Source: Naegleria gruberi
Taxonomy: Eukaryota
NCBI GenBank assembly: GCA_000004985.1
Contig: GG738858.1
Reading direction: 5' to 3' (one strand)
Length of the DNA stretch: 64,000 nucleotides
Shown in pieces: positions 5,329 through 27,888 of the stretch. Each line of letters begins with the position of its first letter. Within the stretch, counting starts at the first letter, position 1. The notes below the pieces were generated by a model, which ran no database searches, was not told the origin of the DNA, and was given only the letters and a program-made list of their open reading frames with translations. Position numbers and translations under genes: made by a program.

Positions 5329-5712
5329 CCCTGACAATGACTTTCTATCCACAAGTTTTTGAGCCAAATCGTTTTTGCAGCAAAGTTTGAAAAGAATTTT
5401 CTCACAGTGGAAAAATTGTAAAAATTGTCACATCGTGGAGTTTGTGTTAATAATTCACGAATGTACATTTAAGGTACCTCTCTGTTTCTTGGATCAGTTA
5501 GCCTTTCCAATAAATTCCAGAAAATGGATTGGCATTTTTCATATTCATCGTCATGTGTTTGCATTTGTTTTAATAGAAAGATTAATTGTTGTTGAGCCTT
5601 AGTAAATTTTCTCGTTAGAATGAGATTTTTGTGGATTTAAAGTGCAGTTTATTCAAATAAATCAATTCAAGAAATTTACTCAGAAATATTATGGTTTGTG
5701 CTGCTCAATTCA

Positions 5713-10638: not shown

Positions 10639-12992
10639 TTATAAATTCCATTCATTTAAAATCATTTCAGCAGCCTTTTCAGCAATAGCAGCAGTAGGAG
10701 CATTAGTATTACCTCTTGGAACATTTGGCATAATAGAAGCATCAACAACTCTTAAATTTTTAACACCTCTAACTTTACAATATTCATCAACTACTGACAT
10801 TTCATCATTTTCAGATCCCATTTTACATGTTGAAGTTGGATGATATAATGTTGTAAACATTTGTGTTAAACATTCTCTAATTTCATCATGTGTTTTATAA
10901 TCGTGTGGAGAACAGAATATAAATTCCTTAACCATACTCTTAAATGGTTCTTGGAGGAAGGTTTTTTGAATTTGAGAAATTCCATCCACCAATACTTTAA
11001 TATCTTGTTCATTTCCAAAATAGTTACCATGTATAATTGGTGAATCATTGGTATCATTGGATCTTAATGAAATATATCCTCTTGCTTTAGGTTGTAAATT
11101 TACAACTCCAATTGAAATACCTATTATTATTATTATTATCATTATTATTATTTAAATAATACATATTAAATAATATTATTAAATATAATTAAATATTAGG
11201 GAAATATTAAATAATACTATTAAATAAAAACATACCATTTTCACCTGGATATTCAATAGAAGCATGATGTACAAAGAAACCAGGAACTGAAACAATTTGT
11301 AAATCATATGGTTGATTATTTTCCTTTGCATATTTTGATTTGAAAAAACCTTGAATATGTGGAGCTCCAACATTAAATAATTTCCATGAATTTGGAATGG
11401 CAGCTGGGAATAATTTTCTCACCATTGAAAATTCTAAGAAATTGAATGAAGATTGCATAATCCATTGAAGTAAATTCCACAAACTTTCATAGGAATGAAG
11501 TGAAGTGTAACCTTCTTTTAATTTACCAATTACAGCTCCTAATAAATGATCATGAAGATTTTTACCAACTCCTTTCAAATTGGATATAATTGGAATGTTG
11601 AATTTCTTTAATTCTTCTTTATCACCAATACCTGATACCATTAATATCTATTATTATAAATATATATTAAATATTAAATATATATTAAATATTATTGTAA
11701 TAATTTTTAAATATATATTATTGTAATATTGTAATATATTGTAAATATTAAATACCTACTTGTGGTGAAGCAATTGAACCTGCTGATGAAATAACTTCCT
11801 TTCTAACATTAATTTTAATTAATTGATTTGTTCTCTTATTTAAATATTCAACACCACTTGCTACATTTTCATTCTTTCCATTTTTAGTAAATAAAATTCT
11901 TTTAACAATACATTCTGTTCTAATTTGTAAATTTGGACGTTTTAATGTTTCTAAATCTAGAAATGCTTCTGCAAGTGAATGTCTTCTACCATTTTCATCA
12001 ATTGAATGATGATGATATGAAACACTTTCTAAAATTGAATGTCCTTCTCCTTTTTCTAATAATTCTTCTTCATTTGGTAATAATTCATTTGGATCTAATA
12101 TTTTTAAAATAAAATTAATAAAAAATATAATTAAAATTAAAAAATTAAAAAATTAATTAAAAAATAAAACTAACCATCTCTAATTGGTATATTTAAACCA
12201 TTACTTAAACTATTAATAATAACACTTGTTAAATTAAAATTAACTAATGGACCAATTTCTTCAATAATATCTTTAGTATGTTTAATTTTCCATTTTCCAT
12301 CAGTGCCATGATATTTTCTATTTATATTTTTACTTAAATGTTTTTCAGATTTTTTAAAATATTTTAACATATCCTTATAGGACCATGATAAATTACCATT
12401 TTTAGAAGTATTATTAAATAATAAATAATTCCATTCATTATAATCTAATGGATGTCCTCTAATATATAAATTAGCATTAACAGATGATGAACCACCAATT
12501 ACTTTACCACGTGGCATGTAAATTTCTCTATTTCTTAATTGAGGTTGTGAAATTGTTTTGTAATCATAGTCAATTGAAGTATTCATTGTAAACTTTGGAA
12601 ATCCAAGTGGAAAATGAATTCCAATTAAATCATTATTTGATACTCCTGATTCTAATACTAAGACTTTAATTTTAGGATTTTCACTTAATCTACTTGATAA
12701 TACACTACCAGCTGTACCACTTTTATTACAATGATAGTATTACAATATTACAATAATATAGTTATTATGATTAGTATTATTGATCAAAATATTAAATAAA
12801 TAAATAAAAATATTAATAAATAAATATAACATACGCTCCAATAATAACATAATCAAAATCAGTTATATTTGATAGAGTAGGATCAGAGTGATACTTTTCA
12901 AATCTATTTTCAACTTTAATATATTGTTGATAGAATAGATAGAGGAATGAAATGATCACTATTAATGAACTAGTAATTAATAATTTTAACAT
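10639..12992 (-). CDS. GMC-family FAD oxidoreductase (choline dehydrogenase-like) with N-terminal membrane anchor; 5 exons
   Basis: Manual model on the minus strand: 12835..12992, 12175..12719, 11760..12094, 11236..11647, 10639..11120; 643 aa. Introns are GTATGT, GTTAGT, GTAGGT, GTATGT ... AG, and all restore frame. N-terminal FAD motif DFDYVIIGA|GTAGSVLSSRLSENPKIKVLVLESG spans intron 1. Central ...EVISSAGSIASPQ|ILMVSGIGDKEEL spans intron 3. C-terminal YHPTSTCKMGSEND...VDASIMPNVPRGNTNAPTAAIAEKAAEMIL carries the GMC active-site His. The N-terminal 25 aa (MLKLLITSSLIVIISFLYLFY) are hydrophobic. Confidence 0.75.
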
Positions 12993-13351: not shown

Positions 13352-15433
13352 TTATTGACTACCAGTCTTGGCAAAATCATTAAAACCACCCAATAAAGAA
13401 TCAGGAATAAATTCATAAGTTGAAATCTTTTCAGCCATTTCAATTAAATCAAAAGCAATATCTTGTGTAATGACACTATCTTTTTGATAATTTTGATGAT
13501 TTCTAATAAATTGTCTAATAAAAGCAGCATTAGTTTGTAATTTACCACTTGCTCTCAAACTAACTAAATTTAAATATCTTTCCAATTTAATTCTATCATT
13601 AACTTCAACATGCATTTGATCAAGATATTTTCTAACAAGAGGAATTAATCCAATAAATTTCTTATCTTGTTCTTGAACACCATTCATAATTTCATTAATT
13701 GTTAATTCCTTTGTACATTTAGAAAAAGTTTCAGATGAAATTTTAGAATTCAAATCAGAATCTAAACAAGTTCTAAATGAAAACTTTTGATTCAATACAG
13801 CATCTCTTAAATGTGCCTTTTTCATATTTTCATCAACTTGTGAAAGTGGCATTAACATGTTCAATTTGAATGATAAAATAGCACGTGTTAATAAAACAAT
13901 AAAAACTGTAAATGCAGCATTTTCAAAATCAGTTAATTGAACTTCCATAACTCTAAATTCAACTCTCCATCCAATTGATGAATTTGGACCTGGAGGTGGT
14001 TTAAATCTAACAGTTTGCCAATTGGTTGATTGTAAATTTTCAAAATGAACAGATTCATTTTCATCATCAACTTGTTTACAATCAGTAAATATAACAAGTG
14101 GATCACGTATAAAGTAATGTGCAATATGTCTTGATAATTGTTCATCAATATTATTTTCACGTAAAGTATTATATGATTGTTCATCAATTTCAATTTCCAA
14201 ATCACTAAATTGTTTTGCTTGTTCATTTTCACCAATATATAAACTAATTGAATCATATCTACTTTTAGAAATTGTATTATTTTCTTCATCTCTTCTATCA
14301 TCAACACTTGCACTAACAATATTCCATCGTACATCTGTATCTGCTAATAATCCACGTGCCATTGGTGTTGCTGCTGTGAGTGCTAACATTATTGGACATA
14401 AAACTGCCATTTGATCATATAAATTACGTGCTTCATGAATATCACGTGCTAATAATGTACTTTGCATACAACAACATCCCATTCCAAATGCCATTGCATC
14501 CATATGAATAAAATGTTCAAAATCTGTTATCAATCTTTGTGCATATGAAGATGAAAGTACTTGTTCCTTCTTTTGTTGAATAATTTCATCAATATTTGGA
14601 TATAAATTTGTTAGAGTTGATGAACTAGTTGTTGAAGAAGATGTAATATTATCCAAATGATGAACTTGTTTACCAATATTAACATTAGTATTTTCATCAA
14701 TATATAATGGTACTAGAATGTTAACATTTTTACCTCTTCTCAATCTGATATTTCTAGTTAGAGTACCAAATCTTGGATGTTCATTTGTAATAATATCTGG
14801 AATGTATGGTGATCTTGCAATTGGTCCATTAAAAGTTAACATTTCATTACTTTCATCATCACTTAATGGTAAAATATCACCAATCTTATTAAATTGACTC
14901 TTATTAATATCACTATTCAATACTTTACTTGTTGCACCTAATAATGGAAATAAAGACATTGTAATAACAGAATTTGTAACATTTGGTGATTTGAATTGTT
15001 GTAAAATCTTTGGAACAATTGATTGTGCAATCATTCTTCTTTTTTGCATTGATTCTTCACATTTCAAATAACAAGAAATACATCCTTCATATGGAAAGAA
15101 AGGTGTACCTTCTAACATAAATCTACCATATTCTGGTTTCCAACTTGCTAATGGTGCTTGTGTTATCAATTTTGAATTAAAATCTTCTTCTTCTTTCATT
15201 AAAACATCTAATACTTGTTTAGCATGTAATGATAAATAAACTTGACGTGATTCGGAATCTTTTTCTAACAATAAATATTCAATTTCATCTCCCCATTTCA
15301 ATTCTTTATCAGTTCTATCTTTTACCTTGTTATAAATTATTATAAATTGTTTAATACCATGTTCTTTTACATAGTCAATTAATGAAAGTGCATCAGTCCA
15401 CTTGAGTGGTGTACCTGCTTTTAATAATCCCAT
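13352..15433 (-). CDS. GCLC: Glutamate-cysteine ligase catalytic subunit (gamma-glutamylcysteine synthetase)
   Basis: Intronless 693-aa ORF collinear with metazoan GCLC: MGLLKAGTPLKW, KWGDEIEY, HPRFGTLTRNIR, HMDAMAFGMGCCCMQ, DVRWNIVSASVDDR, HFENLQSTNWQTVRFKPPP, IGWRVEFRVMEVQLTDFENAAF, KDSVIT. Confidence 0.9.
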   Translation of the reverse strand: MGLLKAGTPLKWTDALSLIDYVKEHGIKQFIIIYNKVKDRTDKELKWGDEIEYLLLEKDSESRQVYLSLHAKQVLDVLMKEEEDFNSKLITQAPLASWKPEYGRFMLEGTPFFPYEGCISCYLKCEESMQKRRMIAQSIVPKILQQFKSPNVTNSVITMSLFPLLGATSKVLNSDINKSQFNKIGDILPLSDDESNEMLTFNGPIARSPYIPDIITNEHPRFGTLTRNIRLRRGKNVNILVPLYIDENTNVNIGKQVHHLDNITSSSTTSSSTLTNLYPNIDEIIQQKKEQVLSSSYAQRLITDFEHFIHMDAMAFGMGCCCMQSTLLARDIHEARNLYDQMAVLCPIMLALTAATPMARGLLADTDVRWNIVSASVDDRRDEENNTISKSRYDSISLYIGENEQAKQFSDLEIEIDEQSYNTLRENNIDEQLSRHIAHYFIRDPLVIFTDCKQVDDENESVHFENLQSTNWQTVRFKPPPGPNSSIGWRVEFRVMEVQLTDFENAAFTVFIVLLTRAILSFKLNMLMPLSQVDENMKKAHLRDAVLNQKFSFRTCLDSDLNSKISSETFSKCTKELTINEIMNGVQEQDKKFIGLIPLVRKYLDQMHVEVNDRIKLERYLNLVSLRASGKLQTNAAFIRQFIRNHQNYQKDSVITQDIAFDLIEMAEKISTYEFIPDSLLGGFNDFAKTGSQ

Positions 15434-15677
15434 TTTGATGTAATTGATATATTGTTGTTTGTTGTATTGTTGATAGAATTAGCCTTCTCTCTTTCTTCTT
15501 TAATATATATGAAATAGTATATAATAATAGTATATTATTGTATTTGATGATATTTATCTATTGTGTCTTCTCCTTCTCTATCCTATGATGAATAGTAGTA
15601 AAAAGGCTAGAAATGATGAAGGATAACCAAATCTCTCTCGAGGTTTTTTTTAATGAATGAACGCAGAGAATATTCCA

Positions 15678-15691
15678 AGCCTTGGAGACGG
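15678..15691 (+). repeat. Left terminal inverted repeat candidate (GCCTTGGAGACGG)
   Basis: Pairs with 20104-20121 in inverted orientation, 11/12 core identity. Confidence 0.4.
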
Positions 15692-15860
15692 CTATTATGG
15701 TTAATTGTGGATTATTATCGCAAAATTCTGGCAAAAAATATTTTTTTTTAATTACGGATTTGAATTATGGAAGTATTACATTAGGTATTATGACGTGAAG
15801 AATTTTAATAAAATTATGTGAATTATTACAAATAAAAATTACAGTTTTTATTAGATTATT
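15690..15860 (+). repeat. Left subterminal motif array: at least 6 copies of (A)ATTA(T/C)G(G/A) in about 170 bp
   Basis: ctATTATGGtt, aATTACGGat, aATTATGGaag, tATTATGAcgtg, aATTATGTg, aATTATTAcaa. Denser than expected, and mirrored by a similar array at the other element end. Confidence 0.45.
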
Positions 15861-15909
15861 TATTATTGTTTTATTTTGAAATTAATTAACTGAAAATTAT
15901 TGCCAGTAT

Positions 15910-18564
15910 TTATTGGTAATAATTCATACAGAATGAAAATTGATTGAGAGCAATAAGACCTGGAAATCTGATTACACTGCACACGCTATTAATCTTTGAA
16001 AGAGGAATTACTGAAGTGGCAACTGAGTGAATGAATAGTTTGTACATTAATGATACATAACACAACTCTCCAAGCGTAAAAATTTCATCACAACAAACAA
16101 CATTATCCCCTAATTGAGATATCTTCCCAATAAATCTATCGAATTGAATATACATTCCAACCTTAAGTGATGATTTTCTAGCAACATCAAGTGTTTTACC
16201 AACTAATCGTCTTGTAAATGGATAATCTGCAAATAATGTATTCATTCCAACTTCATGTTGCAACCCTCTAACTTCAAGTAATTTGTTATTACTTCTATCA
16301 TTAAATTGTTTGAATTCAGAATGTTTCAATTCAAAAATCAACGCCCAAAACCATGTAACATCCCCAAAAAGTACACAATCTTCAAAAATGTGCGTTGCCC
16401 AATGATAATTCGGAAATTGGCAATTATCTTTGCCAAAACAATATGTAAAAATGGATTGAAATTTTGTAAATACTTTTTCACAATACACAATATCATCATG
16501 AGTATAATTCCCCCTTAATAACCTTATAAAATATTGTAAGTGAAGAATCCATCCTTGATAGAGTAATCCTTTTTTAGAAGAATCTATTTTCAACTTTTGA
16601 TTATTATTGTAAATTAATTCACAAATAATAGGAGCACTCATAATAATAAAATCTAACATTGAAATACCTGAAAGAGTGTCAATATCCATTCTTAATTCAA
16701 GCTTTTTTCCATTTGGAAGAGTATACTTTGTTGATATTTCAATTAAATCATCCATAGCAGTCGCATATTCTAATGCTTGTACAAGTAATTTGAGATGTTT
16801 TCGAAATAATCCTTGAATTTCTAAATGAAAGAAATCAACTACAGATCTACGATACGGATCTATCATTATTTGAGTAACAAATCTTGATTTGATGAATGTT
16901 TTGACAATTAATTGATTCATCAATTGTTTTCTTTTGTTTGTTGACATTTGCTTACTTTTGAATCTCTCCTCTTCCCAAGTTTGTTCTTTTACACCTTTCC
17001 TTGCAATTCTATTTTGTTTAGAATCTGCAATTTTAGGTAATTCTGATAATTTCTCAACAATATCTTTCATTTCTGAATGTTCTCTCCTTTTAAATGTGTG
17101 TACACATGTTGGATTAAACGCGGATGCACCCATTAAATCTGTTGGTGTTTTGTCAAGGTTGTCTGACGCATCTAAACATCTGGAACATTCATTTTTCATA
17201 AGTGCTAAACATTTCAATCTTTCAGGTGTATCTAATAAAAATCCCATACAGCAAATGAATAGCTTAATATCTTCTCCTGTAGTTGGATGTTTCACTGTAA
17301 TGATTTTACCATCATGATTTTCAAAATCTTGAATAATTGAATCAGTCATTTTCCAAAATCCTTCATTACTCCATGAAAAACCGTTTACACGAATTGCGCT
17401 TAAACTTGACATGAAATCTGAATCAAAATTGTAACTTGTGAAATAGGAGGCGCATGTTGACTTGGTTTTTGTTCTGAATTTAGCAAAATCATCAAAATAT
17501 TCTAAAACTAGAAATGGAAATGCATCTTCAGGGCATTTAGCAAGGTATTCACCAAATATTTTTGAAAAGTAAGGTTGATTTTCTTTCTTTTGTATATTCT
17601 TTTTTTCAAAATATTCTTTTCGTGTTAAGCACATGTGTTTTGTGATTGCTTGATCTTTCAACAACAATTTCAAATTATTCTCAAATGAAATTGCTGCAAA
17701 TCCATCCTCTTGTTTGTATTCAAAATTGATCATTGCTTTTTTCCTTTCGAGTAATGTATCGTAACAAGGAATTTCGTTAAAAGTTGATTCAGGGACCATG
17801 TATTTGAACATATCTCTAAGGAAATCGTACCCACTTTTACACAATTTGAAATGATTAACCAAAATATAACAGTATATTTCTTCTTTTGATTGAAATACAC
17901 CCTTTCCATTCACATCTTTTAAAATTTCACACCCCAAATCATATGGTAGCTCTTTAAAAACAAAATTTCCAATTTTTTCACATTTTACATCCGATTCTTT
18001 GTGAAATATTTCTGAAACTGGAAAATAAAGAGTGTCAATTATTGAAAAGGGAGTTTCAATTGTATTAGCAAATCCGAAAATACTACCTTCAGCTAAAACT
18101 TGTTGTGAGTGAATTCCGTTTTGTTTTAGCTTCTTCTGTTGCGATTCGTATTCAGTCAGCTTTGGTAATCTACTGTCTTTAGATTTTAGCAAATGTGTAC
18201 AATGTGAATTAATAATGTGAGTGTAACAATTTTCACTGTTCATGATAAAATTACAACAATTAAATCTTGATACAGTATCTATCTTTGCAAGAGAACAATT
18301 TCCCTTAGAACATCTATTAAGATGCTTTTTTAATAAATCTCCCTTTGTAAATGTTTGACAACAAAAAGGACAGACCCAGCGTTTTGTTTGACAATCACGA
18401 CATGAAGAACATAAACTTAAATCAAATGAAGATTTTGCACATTCATACACATAGTACTCTTCCTCTTTTTGACATTTATCGCATTTTGTTGCTTTTGTGA
18501 GAAAATCAAGGGATACATTGTTACCAGGTTTTTGTGTAATCATTTTTTTAGCATTGTAAACCAT
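15910..18564 (-). CDS. TNP2/En-Spm-like (Transposase_21, KDZ-superfamily) transposase with N-terminal Cys-rich (CxC-type) zinc-binding region
   Basis: Long intronless ORF: 895 aa from the ORF-track TTG, 883 aa from the first in-frame ATG at 18564 (an in-frame TGA lies upstream). N-terminus has 17 Cys in 100 aa (CDKCQK..C..CSSCRDC..WVCPFCCQ..C..C). Central region PFLVLEYFDDFAKFRTKTKSTCASYFTSYNFD matches the TNP2 core LGL.TDGFNPF....S.YS.WP..LT.YNLP. GEDIKLFICCMGFLLDTPERLKCLALMKNECSRC matches the following conserved block ending C..C. C-terminal HWATHIFEDCVLFGDVTWFWALIFELKHSEFKQFNDRSNNKL resembles the DUF4218-like tail (H....D..LFG.V...W.F.FER....K....R..NK). No poly-N/Q tracts, unlike host genes. 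Confidence 0.6.
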   Translation of the reverse strand: MVYNAKKMITQKPGNNVSLDFLTKATKCDKCQKEEEYYVYECAKSSFDLSLCSSCRDCQTKRWVCPFCCQTFTKGDLLKKHLNRCSKGNCSLAKIDTVSRFNCCNFIMNSENCYTHIINSHCTHLLKSKDSRLPKLTEYESQQKKLKQNGIHSQQVLAEGSIFGFANTIETPFSIIDTLYFPVSEIFHKESDVKCEKIGNFVFKELPYDLGCEILKDVNGKGVFQSKEEIYCYILVNHFKLCKSGYDFLRDMFKYMVPESTFNEIPCYDTLLERKKAMINFEYKQEDGFAAISFENNLKLLLKDQAITKHMCLTRKEYFEKKNIQKKENQPYFSKIFGEYLAKCPEDAFPFLVLEYFDDFAKFRTKTKSTCASYFTSYNFDSDFMSSLSAIRVNGFSWSNEGFWKMTDSIIQDFENHDGKIITVKHPTTGEDIKLFICCMGFLLDTPERLKCLALMKNECSRCLDASDNLDKTPTDLMGASAFNPTCVHTFKRREHSEMKDIVEKLSELPKIADSKQNRIARKGVKEQTWEEERFKSKQMSTNKRKQLMNQLIVKTFIKSRFVTQIMIDPYRRSVVDFFHLEIQGLFRKHLKLLVQALEYATAMDDLIEISTKYTLPNGKKLELRMDIDTLSGISMLDFIIMSAPIICELIYNNNQKLKIDSSKKGLLYQGWILHLQYFIRLLRGNYTHDDIVYCEKVFTKFQSIFTYCFGKDNCQFPNYHWATHIFEDCVLFGDVTWFWALIFELKHSEFKQFNDRSNNKLLEVRGLQHEVGMNTLFADYPFTRRLVGKTLDVARKSSLKVGMYIQFDRFIGKISQLGDNVVCCDEIFTLGELCYVSLMYKLFIHSVATSVIPLSKINSVCSVIRFPGLIALNQFSFCMNYYQ

Positions 18565-18674
18565 ATGAAATTCTACCAAATAGTGGTTATTTTTCAATGT
18601 ATTCCACCAAACACAAAATCATTACGTAATAATTTCGTATTGTAAATTATTAAAAAAAAACCATCCAAAACATA

Positions 18675-19379
18675 ATGTTAAGTACAACAACATCTATTAC
18701 AAATTCCACCGTAACACCTCCCAAAAAACGAAAAAAAGAGGTGGAGAAAAGAAAAACGACAAAGACACACCACCAAAAACTGTCTTATTGTACAAGTCTT
18801 GTTCCTGACAACTTTGTCACCTTGTTGAAACCTTTGCAAGATAGATACTTGGAAATTATTAATGAAACCAACGTTAGCTATTATTCCTTGGTAAGTAATT
18901 AATTGATTTTGTTACAATTTCCAAAGAAACTAAGAGCAGACTCTGACATAGAAATACAACAAGTAGCTGCAACATCATTGGTGGCAGTAACAAATTTTTT
19001 TGCTAACAATGCACAAATTCAAAGTTTAAAAAATAATTGTGAAAAAGATGAAAAACAATTTAATTTAATCGTAAGTTAGATTATAATAGCTAATAGTTTG
19101 TTTAATTTTACTGTTCAGATTGATGAAATAGTGTTGAACTGTTGCCGAGCTTATAAGAGCAACAAGAAGAAGAATTTGAAACGAAAGCAAGTAGAAAAAA
19201 CACGTGATTCTGGTAAGAAATTTGCAGTAGAAGATGAGGCAATAATTTATGAACAAGATGATCAATATAAAGCTTATAGAGATAAATTATCCGAACCAAC
19301 TAAAAACAAAAAAACTAAAATTGATAGTTCTATGGCTGTAGATATGGTTTGTTATCAACTTTTAATTCAAATATTCCAA

Positions 19380-19410
<31 letters not shown>

Positions 19411-19415
19411 TCTAA
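18675..19415 (+). CDS. Element-internal ORF2: small basic nuclear protein; 3 exons
   Basis: Exons 18675..18890, 18927..19070, 19119..19415, about 218 aa. Both introns begin GTAAGT and end ...CAAAG / ...TTCAG, and both restore frame. N-terminus is T/S-rich followed by PPKKRKKEVEKRKTTK (classic basic NLS), with a second K-rich block (KSNKKKNLKRKQVEK). C-terminus ends in a poly-Tyr run encoded by (ATT)9 read in the TAT frame, so the last exon boundary is uncertain. Transcribed divergently from the transposase from a 110-bp shared region. Confidence 0.4.
19381..19407 (+). repeat. (ATT)9 microsatellite
   Basis: Perfect 27-nt trinucleotide repeat at the 3' end of ORF2. Confidence 0.9.
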
Positions 19416-19974
19416 TTTCCGAATTTAATTAATTTCCAAATTTAATTCCACAATCACGTAAGTTACACTGAAGTTTTCAATTTTTCAATAATTCAATAAT
19501 TCAATATTGAATATTAATTTCCTTAGTTAATTGGTCAACTAATTCTGTTGCCTTTGGAGTCACTTCACAGTCAATTCACTCAATTCCAACACATAACTCT
19601 TTCATCTTCATGTTCATCTGTTGCAACAACAGAAACTACAGTCATTTCCCTTTGTACAGTTCCCATTGTTTCAATATTTGTTAGTTTCTGTGTAATTTGC
19701 TTTACTGTAAATAATCAAATAAATCAAATTCAATTAAAATTAAATATATTTCATAATTTTACAAAATAATTAGGTCAAAAATCTATCGTAAATTCTGTAA
19801 TAATTATTCCAATATATTTACATAATTATTCCATATTAAATTCATAATGTTAATACAATTATTACGTAATTTAATTAATAATTACCTCGTAATAATATCC
19901 GTAATAAATCCAATATTTTTGCCTGGAAATGACAAATCCGGTTGTGAATTGCTGTATAATTATATGATAATTCC

Positions 19975-20100
19975 GAAGAGATTATGATGTGATTGTGTAT
20001 TTTTTTTGGTTTTTATTACGGGAAAATTACGTCAAAATTATGGTGTATTCTGGTTTGATTATGAGCAAATTATGTTAAAATTAAATTAATGATTATGGCA
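19975..20100 (+). repeat. Right subterminal motif array: at least 7 copies of (A)ATTA(T/C)G(G/A) in about 125 bp
   Basis: gATTATGAtgtg, tATTACGGg, aATTACGTc, aATTATGGtg, gATTATGAgc, aATTATGTt, gATTATGGc. Same orientation as the left array. Module-level similarity to the left array, for example T-run followed by ATTACGG, and ATTCTGG. Confidence 0.45.
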
Positions 20101-20103
20101 AAA

Positions 20104-20121
20104 CCGTCTCCTAGGAGGCAT
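20104..20121 (-). repeat. Right terminal inverted repeat candidate (revcomp GCCTCCTAGGAGACGG)
   Basis: Inverted copy of the 15678-15691 motif with a 3-nt insertion (CCT). Confidence 0.4.
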
Positions 20122-20164
20122 GGCTGGTTACGTGTTGGAATGCTTAAAGGTAGTGGAGTCATTA

Positions 20165-20188
20165 TTAAGTGAGTGCGTACTCACTTAA
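20165..20188. repeat. Perfect hairpin / palindrome TTAAGTGAGT-gcgt-ACTCACTTAA
   Basis: 10-bp inverted repeat with 4-nt spacer, 44 bp outside the right TIR candidate and about 470 bp upstream of the NAA15 start. Relatively GC-rich for this intergenic region. Confidence 0.6.
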
Positions 20189-20658
20189 TTGACTGATGAA
20201 ATTGAACGGACGCATGAATATTATTTTGAAGATGATTGTTATTGTAAACTACCTTTCTTTACCGAATGTTATTGAATTGGATGTTTATTAGCAATGAATA
20301 TCAGTTCTCTTTATTAAAAAAGATCATTTCATTATTCGAACTTAATCTCAAAAATGTTCTTTCTTAAGGGAGTAATTATAAAAGTATGCACTTGGCATTT
20401 CATCCGCCAATTTGTACTCATTATCCGTTCAAATGTCTGCGCCACGCTGAAAGTTGTGAATTGGTATTAATTTTTACAATTATGGATTGGCTGATAATCT
20501 CAATTTTACAAAATTGTTACAATTTTATTCAAATTTTACTCAAATTCGCCCAATTTTAAATTGAAAATAAACACTCAATGCAGTTTATGTTAAATTATTC
20601 TCATAATGAATTTTAATTTCTTGTTGAAAAATAAAATTTTTGTTTTTGCTTTAAAAAA

Positions 20659-23600
20659 ATGACCAAGAAGCGTGGTGCCACTTCATCATCAACAACTTCA
20701 GCAGCAGCAACAAGTCAACAATCTGCTACCAACAAGTCTGCTACAGCAACAACAACAACTCAAACATTACCTTCTAAATATGAAGCACTATTCCGTAATC
20801 TTATTAAATTTTATGAAGAAAAACAATATCAAACAGCCTTGTCCTATGCTGATAATATTTTGAGAGATTATCCACAACATGGTGATACAATGGCTATGAA
20901 GGCTTTATTAACAAGATATCTTAAAGAACAAGAAATTAACAAGCGTGTTGAATTTAATACTAATTTTTATTATAATAAGAATTCTACTACAAATTCTAGT
21001 AGTACTACTTCTAACGGTACTAGTAATAGTAATAATAGTATTGGTGATGAATTAATGTTATATGACAAGACATATAAAAAAGATGCTTATAATATGGTTA
21101 AAAAGGCTTTGGAATATGTTAATAACAAGTCATTTATTTGTTGGCATGTTTATGGATTAATGTATAAGGAAGATTTTAAAATTTCTCAAGCAATTACTTG
21201 TTTCCAAAATTCATTAAAATTTAATCCAACTAATGAAATTCAAGCTTGGCGTGAATTGAGTAATGTTCAAATTCATTCAAGAGATTATAAAGGAGCGATT
21301 GAAAGTAGAAGAAAGTTAATTGAATTAAAACCAGGTATTGGTGCATTTTGGTTAGGTTATGCTGTTGCTCAACATTTAAGTGGAAATTTAACAGGCGCTA
21401 TTCAAACTATTGATAAATACATGACAGCACTTTTTGAACAAAGTAATAAGGATAGTAAGAATTACAAATTTGAAAAATCAGAATTATTACTTTATTTAGC
21501 ACAAATGATGTATGAAAATGGTCAATATAAGGAATGTGCTGATTCTTTATTAGCTAATACTAAATTTTTAGCTGATGAACTTTCAACTTTGGAATTACTT
21601 GCTGATTGTTATATTAAATTAAATCAATTAGATCATGCTAAAAAGATTGCTTTACAATTAATTAAGAAGAATTCAGAAGATTATTCTTATTATGGTAAAT
21701 ATCAATTAGCTTGTGGATTTAATACAAGTGAAAATAGATTCCTCCTCGATGATTCTAAATCTAATAATAATCAACAAGAAGAAGTTGCATTGAAATTATT
21801 TGAAATGTATACAACAAGTGAAGATTTGAAGGAATTTAGAGAAAAATCACCAGTTCTTAAAATGATTATTCTTTCTCTCTGTCCACCATATAACAATTCA
21901 AATGATGAAAGATTTAAAAAGGAATTGAATTCATTTGTTGAACCATATTTTACCAAGACTATTCCATCACTTTTTAAAACTTTGAAATCAATTTATCAAA
22001 AACAAACTTGTAAAATTGCACTCATTGAACAAGCCATGTTAGAAAGAATGAATCAAGAAGAATCCAATACTACTTCTAATACTTCTAATACTTCTACTAC
22101 TACTACTAACAAAGATCCAACCATTTTACTTTGGATTTATGTTTATTTATCACAACATTATGATGCCATTCATCAATATGATAAGGCTCTTGAATATGTT
22201 AATAGAGCTATTGAACATACTCCAACTCTTATTGAATTGTACATGCTCAAGGCTAAATTTTACAAACATTTATTTAATACTGAACAAGCTGCTTTATGTA
22301 TGGAACAAGCACGTTTAATGGATTTATCTGATCGTTATTTAAATACTAAAGCAACCAAATATTGGACAAGACATGATGAAATTGTTAAGGCTGATGAAAT
22401 GATTGGTATCTTTGCTAAACATCCAAAAGATCCTGCAACAAAGAAGGAAGAAGAAGCAAAAGAAAAGGAAAAGGCCAAACAACAACAAGAACAACCTCAA
22501 CAAACTCAACAAACTCAAACATCATCTTCATCACAACAAGATCTTGAAAAGAAGGAAGAAGAAGAAAAGGATTCTAATTTAATTCCAATTGAAGATGGTG
22601 CTATTTATCATCGTAATAATGTTCATGATATGCAATGTTTATGGTTTGAAAATGAATGTGGTGATGCTCATTATAGAAAGGGAGAATTATCAATGGCTGT
22701 TCGTAGATATTATTATACAGTTCAACATTTTATGGAAATGTATGAAGATCAATTTGATTTCCATACTTATTCAATTAGAAAGATGACACTTAGATCATAT
22801 ATTGAAATGATGAAATATTATGACAAGTTATATTCACAATATTTCTATTTCCATTCAGTTTGTGGATTATTGAATGTTTATTTATTATTATTAAAACAAA
22901 AAGAAGAAAAGGAAGGAATTACATTTGATTCACCAACTGAATATGGTAATTTTAAGAATGATTACATTTCAAATTTCCAAAATATTGATTTGAGAAAAGA
23001 TGAAGATTTGAATGGATTATATCTTTCTTCTAAAATTAATTTATTTGATGAATGTACTAAATATTTGAAACAATTAGAAGAATATCATTCAAATGAAATT
23101 ATTACACATATTTATGGTGTAACTATTTATTTAAAGAGTAGAAAATATTTACTTGCTAGTAAAGCATTAAAAAAAGCATTGGAATTATCACCATCTGATT
23201 ATAGAGCTCATTTATTGAAATTCCAATATTTAAAAACTATTAATTCTATTGATCAAGCTGATTCACTCTATAAATTATTACAAATGGATTATCAAAAAAT
23301 TACTTTAGGTAAATCATTAAATGATTTAAATGAAGAATGGAAAAATCAATTTATTACCAATAATAATAATAATAATAATAATGGAGGTGATATTCTCAAT
23401 GTATTATCCTATTTATCTGTTAAACATTTAATTAATGATAACAATAATAACAATAATACTGATAATAATGATAATGAATTATTAACAAGTATTGTTGAAA
23501 AATCATCATTACGTTCATGTTATATTGCTCATGCCATGTTAACAAAGAAGAGAATTACAAATAGACCATACAAGAAGGAACAAGATTACAAGATTAATAC

Positions 23601-23688
23601 TCATTTAGATTTTACAATTCAAAATCAAGATTTAATTGTTAATCAATTAGTTCAAAAGATTGAATCTGTTTTTAATATTAAATTGTAA
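20659..23688 (+). CDS. NAA15: N-alpha-acetyltransferase 15 (NatA auxiliary subunit, TPR protein)
   Basis: Intronless 1009-aa ORF collinear with NAA15/Nat1: YEALFRNLIKFYEEKQYQ, GDTMAMKAL, ICWHVYGLMYK, WRELSNVQIHSRDY, AFWLGYAVAQHL, PTILLWIYVYLSQHYD, PTLIELYMLKAKFYKH, LSDRYLNTKATKYW, MQCLWFENECGDAHYRKGE, QFDFHTYSIRKMTLRSYIEMMK. Extra S/T/N-rich and K/E-rich low-complexity insertions. AAAAAAATG start. Confidence 0.9.
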   Translation: MTKKRGATSSSTTSAAATSQQSATNKSATATTTTQTLPSKYEALFRNLIKFYEEKQYQTALSYADNILRDYPQHGDTMAMKALLTRYLKEQEINKRVEFNTNFYYNKNSTTNSSSTTSNGTSNSNNSIGDELMLYDKTYKKDAYNMVKKALEYVNNKSFICWHVYGLMYKEDFKISQAITCFQNSLKFNPTNEIQAWRELSNVQIHSRDYKGAIESRRKLIELKPGIGAFWLGYAVAQHLSGNLTGAIQTIDKYMTALFEQSNKDSKNYKFEKSELLLYLAQMMYENGQYKECADSLLANTKFLADELSTLELLADCYIKLNQLDHAKKIALQLIKKNSEDYSYYGKYQLACGFNTSENRFLLDDSKSNNNQQEEVALKLFEMYTTSEDLKEFREKSPVLKMIILSLCPPYNNSNDERFKKELNSFVEPYFTKTIPSLFKTLKSIYQKQTCKIALIEQAMLERMNQEESNTTSNTSNTSTTTTNKDPTILLWIYVYLSQHYDAIHQYDKALEYVNRAIEHTPTLIELYMLKAKFYKHLFNTEQAALCMEQARLMDLSDRYLNTKATKYWTRHDEIVKADEMIGIFAKHPKDPATKKEEEAKEKEKAKQQQEQPQQTQQTQTSSSSQQDLEKKEEEEKDSNLIPIEDGAIYHRNNVHDMQCLWFENECGDAHYRKGELSMAVRRYYYTVQHFMEMYEDQFDFHTYSIRKMTLRSYIEMMKYYDKLYSQYFYFHSVCGLLNVYLLLLKQKEEKEGITFDSPTEYGNFKNDYISNFQNIDLRKDEDLNGLYLSSKINLFDECTKYLKQLEEYHSNEIITHIYGVTIYLKSRKYLLASKALKKALELSPSDYRAHLLKFQYLKTINSIDQADSLYKLLQMDYQKITLGKSLNDLNEEWKNQFITNNNNNNNNGGDILNVLSYLSVKHLINDNNNNNNTDNNDNELLTSIVEKSSLRSCYIAHAMLTKKRITNRPYKKEQDYKINTHLDFTIQNQDLIVNQLVQKIESVFNIKL

Positions 23689-27838: not shown

Positions 27839-27888
27839 NNNNNNNNNNNNNNNNNNNNNNNNNNNNNNNNNNNNNNNNNNNNNNNNNN
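27839..27888. other. Assembly gap (50 N)
   Basis: Run of N. Confidence 1.

Follow-up and report, generated by a model that had tools for sequence, protein, structure and literature searches.

Three short-motif arrays of ordered polarity at the ends of a predicted CACTA/RAG1-clade transposon in Naegleria gruberi

A transposon between two divergent housekeeping genes

The stretch of Naegleria gruberi DNA analysed here (64,000 nucleotides of contig GG738858.1, assembly GCA_000004985.1; hereafter the window) contains a transposon of 4436 bp at 15680-20115, with an AG on either side, which carries two genes and, close to its ends, three arrays of the short motif ATTAYG. We consider it probable that the element is a full-length, apparently autonomous cut-and-paste transposon of the CACTA-Mirage-Chapaev-Transib (CMCT)/RAG1 clade, with the ATTAYG arrays as its subterminal repeats and putative binding sites for an element-encoded module. 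Real sequence occupies positions 1-28919 of the window, including a 50-N scaffold gap at 27839-27888, and positions 28920-64000 are N padding; chance expectations from shuffles of the whole source were diluted by N, and the statistics given here were recomputed on the real sequence only. The G+C content of the contig is 28%. The flanking open reading frame (ORF) on the left encodes a glutamate-cysteine ligase (13352-15433, minus strand, start at 15433) and that on the right a NatA auxiliary subunit (20659-23688, plus strand, start at 20659). The element therefore sits between two divergent housekeeping genes, and its insertion site is their divergent promoter region.

The left end of the element is formed by the terminal inverted repeat (TIR) CCTTGGAGACGG (15680-15691, plus strand) and the right end by CCGTCTCCTAGG (20104-20115, minus strand; CCTAGGAGACGG when read inwards). 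The two are complementary at 11/12 positions and are the sole such 12-mer pair within the contig; the inverted terminal 12-mers reported by an earlier, sequence-only reading of the window are thus present. The target-site duplication is the dinucleotide AG, found at 15678-15679 (flank ...CCAAG) and again, in the sequence directly after the right TIR, at 20116-20117. Position 4 of the left TIR is T in the window copy and A in the family-wide start CCTAGGAG, as seen in the metagenomic relative L001, in six N. lovaniensis copies (L002-L007) and in two degenerate N. lovaniensis relatives (L010 and L011). Termini of the form CCTAGG...CCTAGG are common to the window, L001 and L002-L007, and are found in L010 and L011 at the single identifiable (right) end. 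The hallmarks of the family are CCTAGGAG-type termini, a 2-bp target duplication, a length of about 4.4 kb (window and N. lovaniensis; about 5.4 kb in L001) and two divergent genes.

Three arrays of one motif inside the element

The recurrent core of the arrays is ATTAYG, with five copies in 15694-15818 and seven in 19981-20097, all on the plus strand and none on the minus strand. When each local segment was shuffled with preservation of its dinucleotides, neither count was reached (0/5000 each; means 0.41 on the left and 0.27 on the right). Likewise, the count in an inner array, with six minus-strand copies at 19752-19905, was reached by 0/5000 shuffles. The density of ATTAYG across the contig is 1.06 sites per kb per strand, and segments of 130 nt with at least three sites on one strand were found solely inside the element (whole 28.9 kb scanned). 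Other k-mers cluster elsewhere in the contig too; the peculiarity here is one motif clustering three times in one element.

The left subterminal array lies at the transposase-3' end of the element (15693-15843, plus strand), with ATTAYG starts at 15694, 15751, 15764, 15787 and 15813; the sequence also holds the plus-strand variants ATTGTG (15704), ATTCTG (15725) and ATTACA (15838). At the gene-2 end two arrays are found. The inner one (19752-19905, minus strand) consists of six ATTAYG copies with their 5' ends at 19905, 19893, 19870, 19848, 19826 and 19757, and the outer one (19981-20097, plus strand) has copies starting at 19981, 20015, 20026, 20037, 20058, 20069 and 20092, with variants at 19992 and 20047. 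In window coordinates the element accordingly reads TIR, plus-strand array, interior, minus-strand array, plus-strand array, TIR.

Same-orientation arrays just inside both terminal 12-mers had been described in the sequence-only reading, and their presence agrees with the strand-exclusive ATTAYG counts at the two ends. The motif proposed there, AATTA(T/C)GG in about six and about seven copies, fares less well, as exact copies occur only at 15750, 15763 and 20036, and it takes one mismatch to find seven on the left and five on the right. Of the sub-modules said to be shared, a T-run followed by ATTACGG and the ATTCTGG sequence do occur at both ends, but the ATTATG-N4-ATTGTG arrangement of the left end has an N5 spacer on the right. 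The extended similarity of the two terminal plus-strand arrays in direct orientation is weak (local alignment score 29 versus 22.5 ± 3.6 for shuffled sequences; reached by 27/500). The comment that arrays in direct orientation are less usual was correct, but incomplete, for it overlooked the inverted third array at 19752-19905. After reverse complementation this inner array aligns with the left array at a score of 41 (26.3 ± 4.1 for shuffled sequences; reached by 3/500), compared with 29 for the right outer array, and is therefore the array that best pairs with the left one in inverted orientation. Three inverted-repeat pairs also link the inner array with the left one.

The copies of the outer array fall on an 11.0-bp lattice (R 0.96) that was reached by 0/2000 random placements, and those of the inner array on an 11.3-bp lattice reached by 20/2000; the period of the outer array is also apparent from Tandem Repeats Finder, which calls it as period-11 rows. 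The contig has just two copies of a palindrome, ATTACGTAAT, that combines two half-motifs in inverted orientation: one is within the inner array (19861-19870) and the other (18621-18630) in the region of 18544-18674 that forms the divergent promoter of both element genes. The latter position hints at a putative autoregulatory site; no equivalent of the palindrome was detected in the promoter region of the N. lovaniensis element.

Related elements keep the layout with other motifs

A 742-aa homologue of the transposase is present with identical sequence on six N. lovaniensis contigs. These six loci, each in a different gene context, are 99.6-99.9% identical over 4392-4399 bp and have nothing in common outside this span. 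The copies begin with CCTAGGAGCAGA and close with TCTGCTCCTAGG, and their 2-bp flanks match in 6/6 cases (AT, AA, TT, TT, AA, TT). In L001, the transposase of which is 27% identical, the TIRs are 17 bp long (CCTAGGAAGGTCAAAAC / GTTTTGACTTTCCTAGG) and start with CCTAGGA. The right end, the only one identifiable in L010 and L011, reads ...CTCCTAGG, and four or five copies of ACAGGYC are found at this end of L010. L011 also contains, about 2.8 kb from its identified right end (9118), a gene with the Pfam domain HTH_OrfB_IS605 (TnpB/Fanzor-type; 11897-12880, minus strand). In two more distant homologues, L008 and L009, G+C is about 40%, CCTAGG termini are absent and the ends could not be defined; both were left out.

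The arrays of the relatives were compared with the transposase gene drawn on the plus strand in every element. An expectation-maximisation (EM) motif finder returned A/T-rich or low-information consensus sequences, which were discarded; the comparison relies on anchored motifs and on a matrix trained from a single end. In this orientation the window motif reads CRTAAT, and its arrays lie at 19-130 (outer, plus strand), 216-364 (inner, minus strand) and -139 to -20 (transposase-3' end, plus strand). The corresponding motif of L001 has a G[CT]TA core (tgtGTTAwwwcc), with eight plus-strand and no minus-strand copies in the outer array (24-159), none and six in the inner array (183-264), and eight and none at the transposase-3' end (-179 to -27). 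For N. lovaniensis the motif is CCGACRGTATTTT, of which the transposase-3' array holds 11 plus-strand copies (18 on plus and 0 on minus at a lower cut-off). Its inner array has minus-strand sites at 182, 227, 285 and 297 (0 on plus and 5 on minus at the lower cut-off), and its outer array one plus-strand site at 18 (4 and 0). Because the N. lovaniensis matrix was trained on the 11 copies of the transposase-3' end only, the sites at the other end constitute an independent test, against a background of about 0.4-0.5 sites per 175 nt. In L001 the sites have a spacing of 11.4-11.8 bp, and in N. lovaniensis they follow a 13.7-bp lattice.

In combination, these comparisons reveal that the sequence of the motif is lineage-specific, and that the position and polarity of the three arrays are conserved across the window, L001 and N. 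lovaniensis. The sequence-only reading had proposed the ends of other copies of the element as a test for such arrays; relatives at unrelated loci do carry arrays of their own, and these agree with the window in both position and polarity.

The transposase gene and its family

The transposase ORF (15910-18543, minus strand) is intact and uninterrupted, encoding 877 aa from the ATG at 18543, with a further in-frame ATG upstream at 18564. The N. gruberi protein NAEGRDRAFT_75925 (629 aa) is 100% identical to the C-terminal 629 aa of this ORF; covering 72% of it, and without the N-terminal zinc-finger-like region, this annotation is a truncated model of the transposase. The N-terminus contains Cys/His clusters of zinc-finger-like appearance, and in an AlphaFold2 model of the protein (mean pLDDT, the predicted local distance difference test score, of 76) a beta-beta-alpha element is placed at residues 55-80. 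In 23 homologues the candidate catalytic residues, D352, D439 and E739, are fully or almost fully conserved; in the model D352 is within a strand (343-355), and D439 directly follows another (426-438). The pairs C454-x2-C457 and H715-x3-H719 are retained throughout the alignment, and their counterparts in a Transposase_21 protein are CDKC and NYHMALH. This set of D, D, C-x2-C, H-x3-H and E corresponds to the CMCT signature (PMC12730594). Comparison of the family profile with the PF02992 (Transposase_21) protein gave an hhalign probability of 99% (E 8.7e-18, 404 columns) with all motifs in register, and the modelled fold matches those of RAG1, BbRAGL and Transib at sequence identities of 11-14%. 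Judged by these motifs and by the modelled fold, the protein is assigned to the CMC/CMCT clade as a DDE enzyme predicted to be built on an RNase H-like core.

A word-indexed protein search returned little other than self matches, and it was an exhaustive HMMER search that exposed the family. The latter yielded 75 remote homologues, mostly from Naegleria, among which the Pfam families Plavaka and DUF4218 were matched in 1 and 2 proteins, respectively; the closest homologue (P0077) is 36% identical. Members of the family form multi-copy groups in both N. gruberi and N. lovaniensis; N. fowleri has a fragment, and others lie on metagenomic contigs. Neither the window transposase nor its NCBI model gave a record in exact-protein look-ups, and the same was true of the flanking glutamate-cysteine ligase and of P0087, an N. 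gruberi paralogue; a metagenome scan confirmed no relative. The genome paper of N. lovaniensis lists 38 'CMC-EnSpm' repeats by automatic classification (PMC6125883). This label agrees with the CACTA-clade assignment of the family and is all that the searchable literature has covered of it, to which the ends, the target duplication, the two genes and the arrays are now added.

The accessory gene

The second gene of the element (gene 2, about 200 aa, plus strand, 18675-19346) comprises exons at 18675-18890, 18927-19070 and 19119-19346, separated by introns of 36 and 48 nt with GTAAGT...AG boundaries. The 3' end of the model is uncertain, with either a stop shortly past 19346 or an extra exon beyond a 180-nt intron. 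In the N. lovaniensis element and in L001, homologues of gene 2 are likewise placed divergently from the transposase gene. A tblastn search of gene 2 against the other elements gave nothing significant, and the homology is apparent only once the genes are spliced: the products of the three elements then align, with KKKAKL as a shared basic stretch and F..E/D-D..Y-D..SE.YK.Y as a shared C-terminal motif. A profile search with gene 2 matched annotated neighbours of the transposase gene in N. lovaniensis, an N. fowleri protein and an exon of L001. It matched no N. gruberi entry, and an identical protein is absent from a collection of 5.8 billion proteins; gene 2 of the window therefore appears to be unannotated.

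The N. fowleri homologue of gene 2 (P0098) is about 95% identical to its N. lovaniensis counterpart (P0096), and N. fowleri also has a 186-aa transposase fragment that belongs to the same 90% cluster. The element family is common to, or has moved between, the sister species N. fowleri and N. lovaniensis. Downstream of exon 3 of gene 2 in the window (19380-19532) lie a (TAT)9 microsatellite, a 20-nt unit, ATTAATTTCCAAATTTAATT, in three copies (19411-19532), and TTCAATAA in four (19476-19515).

Comparison with known systems

In CACTA elements the TIRs and the transposase are conserved, the subterminal repeats diverge fast, are asymmetric and occur in direct and inverted orientation, and the accessory DNA-binding protein TNPA is poorly conserved (PMC2613891). 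The Naegleria element resembles the CACTA element En/Spm in having a DDE transposase of the same clade (as suggested by the profile match to Transposase_21), short conserved TIRs and a second element-encoded protein. It likewise has asymmetric subterminal regions with short motifs in direct and inverted orientation, here as three arrays of polarity +, -, +, and shows the same fast divergence of repeats and accessory protein alongside conserved TIRs and transposase (PMC2613891). Unlike En/Spm, which ends in CACTA...TAGTG and duplicates 3 bp of target, it has CCTWGGAGACGG TIRs, with CCTAGG...CCTAGG termini, and duplicates 2 bp. It is also compact (4.4 kb), encodes its accessory protein in a separate divergent gene, whereas En/Spm relies on alternative splicing of one transcription unit, and has a motif core of only 6 bp, with the copies sorted into three single-polarity blocks.

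Target duplications in the CMCT clade measure 2-5 bp, a range that fits the AG/AG of the window and the flanks of 6/6 N. lovaniensis copies but not those of L001. The termini of the clade are 5'-CA...TG-3' 'in most cases' (PMC12730594), and CCTAGG takes their place here. A 2-bp duplication has also been reported for PlavakaA and Mirage. The match of one remote family member to the Pfam family Plavaka adds a further link to that group; however, PlavakaA ends in TGT..ACA and PlavakaB in CATCA..TGATG (PMC12730594) as opposed to CCTAGG, and the window protein falls below the Pfam models of both Plavaka and Transposase_21. With RAG1, RAG-like proteins and Transib the element shares the predicted transposase fold alone (11-14% identity, as given above). 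It is without CACAGTG-type termini, heptamer/nonamer signals and 12/23 spacers, its target duplication is 2 bp rather than 5 bp, and the asymmetry of its ends comes from arrays of short motifs.

The arrays had been attributed in the sequence-only reading to an element of CACTA, Mutator or hAT type. Their location inside TIRs and a 2-bp duplication, in an element with a transposase assigned to the CACTA clade, supports the first of these names. The other two were rejected, as hAT elements duplicate 8 bp and Mutator elements 9-11 bp compared with 2 bp here, and no hAT or MULE Pfam matches were obtained.

Analogies of layout extend to more remote systems. PIF/Harbinger elements use a small, separately encoded accessory protein to deliver the transposase to the ends, and the left and right ends of Tn7, Mu, the P element and piggyBac are unlike in how many internal binding sites they have or in the spacing or polarity of these. 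The analogy is one of layout only, the folds and families of these transposases being unrelated and gene 2 having no detectable Myb/SANT domain.

Interpretation and alternative explanations

Arrays of subterminal repeats are an ordinary and expected class of feature in transposons. Since the relatives retain the same three-array polarity, each with a different motif, the arrays are most likely binding sites for an element-encoded protein. Candidates for this binder are the zinc-finger-like N-terminal region of the transposase and the gene-2 protein, which might act in a TnpA-like role. In the mechanism that we propose, the conserved TIR (CCTAGGAG...) would be the cleavage substrate of the RAG1-like catalytic core, and the arrays would load several protein copies beside each end, so that the true ends are marked and their pairing is helped. 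The packing of sites at about 11 bp suggests that loading could be cooperative and head-to-tail. The outward-pointing pair formed by the left array and the inner array of the gene-2 end would provide the usual inverted symmetry for synapsis, and the additional, inward-pointing outer array would render the two ends structurally unequal.

Several observations weigh against this interpretation. The left array has no significant period (random placements reach its value in 519/2000 cases), and the window transposase on its own matches 0 Pfam families. Gene 2 is without a Pfam domain or a detectable Myb/SANT domain, and no DNA-binding domain could be shown for it; the model of its N. lovaniensis orthologue is all-helical and of low confidence (pLDDT 62.5). 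The flanks of L001 are unmatched (TA versus AT) despite perfect CCTAGG termini (9-14 and 5380-5385), while those of the seven other insertions match. The window copy itself is at best putatively mobile, since it appears to be the only one of its kind in N. gruberi and has a left TIR that is one base off the family consensus. Finally, both element genes are transcribed outward, which makes the outward-pointing arrays sense sequence of their 3' untranslated regions (UTRs), and for this reason polarity alone cannot separate a role in DNA from a role in RNA.

The arrays might accordingly be 3'-UTR elements of the two outward genes, read on the sense strand and serving termination, polyadenylation, stability or small-RNA targeting. 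The left array does lie 70-215 nt past the transposase stop codon and the inner array 3' of gene 2, and in each case the motif appears as CRTAAT in the sense strand of the adjoining gene; the arrays of N. lovaniensis and L001 agree in this placement and sense. However, the outer array has the opposite sense and extends to 6 bp from the TIR, and the arrays directly adjoin the TIRs in the manner of classical subterminal repeats. A fold-back of the inner and outer arrays gave no stable structure (z = -0.95), and Rfam found 0 family matches inside the element. Moreover, the motif shifts between lineages and its polarity relative to the ends is kept, which fits co-evolution with an element-encoded binder better than it fits host 3'-end signals. 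On balance we regard a role in RNA as improbable. Very improbable, in our estimate, is that the arrays are a non-functional by-product, namely AT-rich low complexity or tandem repeats generated by slippage at non-coding ends. The contig, at 28% G+C, does contain several k-mer clusters and tandem repeats of similar nominal significance elsewhere, and Tandem Repeats Finder calls parts of the arrays as short tandem repeats. Still, the local dinucleotide-preserving shuffles never attain the observed counts, the motif clusters are confined to three places, all within the element, and their strand exclusivity is complete. The three-block polarity recurs, furthermore, in two lineages with different motifs and transposases that are only 27-40% identical. 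It is on the shuffles and the conserved layout that we exclude chance and slippage.

The possibility raised in the sequence-only reading that the arrays are duplicated host promoter modules, which here would regulate the glutamate-cysteine ligase and NatA genes, is scarcely credible. The element does lie in the divergent promoter region of these genes (starts at 15433 on the minus and 20659 on the plus strand), but both arrays are enclosed by the TIRs and the target duplication and are placed downstream of outward-transcribed element genes, not upstream of host genes. The host flanks (15434-15679 and 20116-20658) contain just one copy of the motif (20479), and equivalent arrays are found at six unrelated N. 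lovaniensis loci. The boundaries of the element and the six N. lovaniensis insertions thus exclude host promoter modules as the source of the arrays.

Within the preferred reading of the arrays as subterminal repeats, a more specific proposal concerns their polarity code, by which we mean a TIR-proximal array on the same strand at both ends and an array on the opposite strand about 180-360 bp inside the gene-2 end only. Such a code may make the ends non-equivalent and enforce synapsis of one left with one right end. It would then be a functional counterpart of the 12/23 rule, made from arrays of short motifs, in a previously uncharacterised CMCT lineage with CCTAGG termini and 2-bp duplications, known so far from Naegleria and uncultured material. 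We consider this proposal unlikely to be correct. As far as the searchable literature goes (Repbase and Dfam being outside the comparison), the CCTAGG termini, the 2-bp duplication, the separate divergent accessory gene and the three-array polarity are undescribed departures on a RAG1-like family. The element would combine a RAG1-like core with CACTA-style subterminal repeats in a compact 4.4 kb, and the same asymmetric ends are found in three lineages despite the change of motif. It could therefore offer a small and tractable system for the co-evolution of subterminal repeats with their binding protein, and for the setting of end identity in the CACTA/Transib/RAG1 clade.

Further observations in the contig

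A perfect hairpin with 11-bp arms, ATTAAGTGAGT-GCGT-ACTCACTTAAT, is located at 20164-20189 in host intergenic sequence upstream of the NatA gene, 48 nt beyond the right boundary of the element. Further strong clusters of short motifs lie in the contig at about 26312, 10151, 24886 and 12100; they comprise TAGTTG (six copies), CTTCCT (five), AATCAA (seven) and A/T-rich repeats near 11650-12120, and are probably simple or coding repeats. Genes for tRNA-Gln(TTG) and tRNA-Arg(TCT) are present on the minus strand at 2126-2198 and 2564-2637, respectively.

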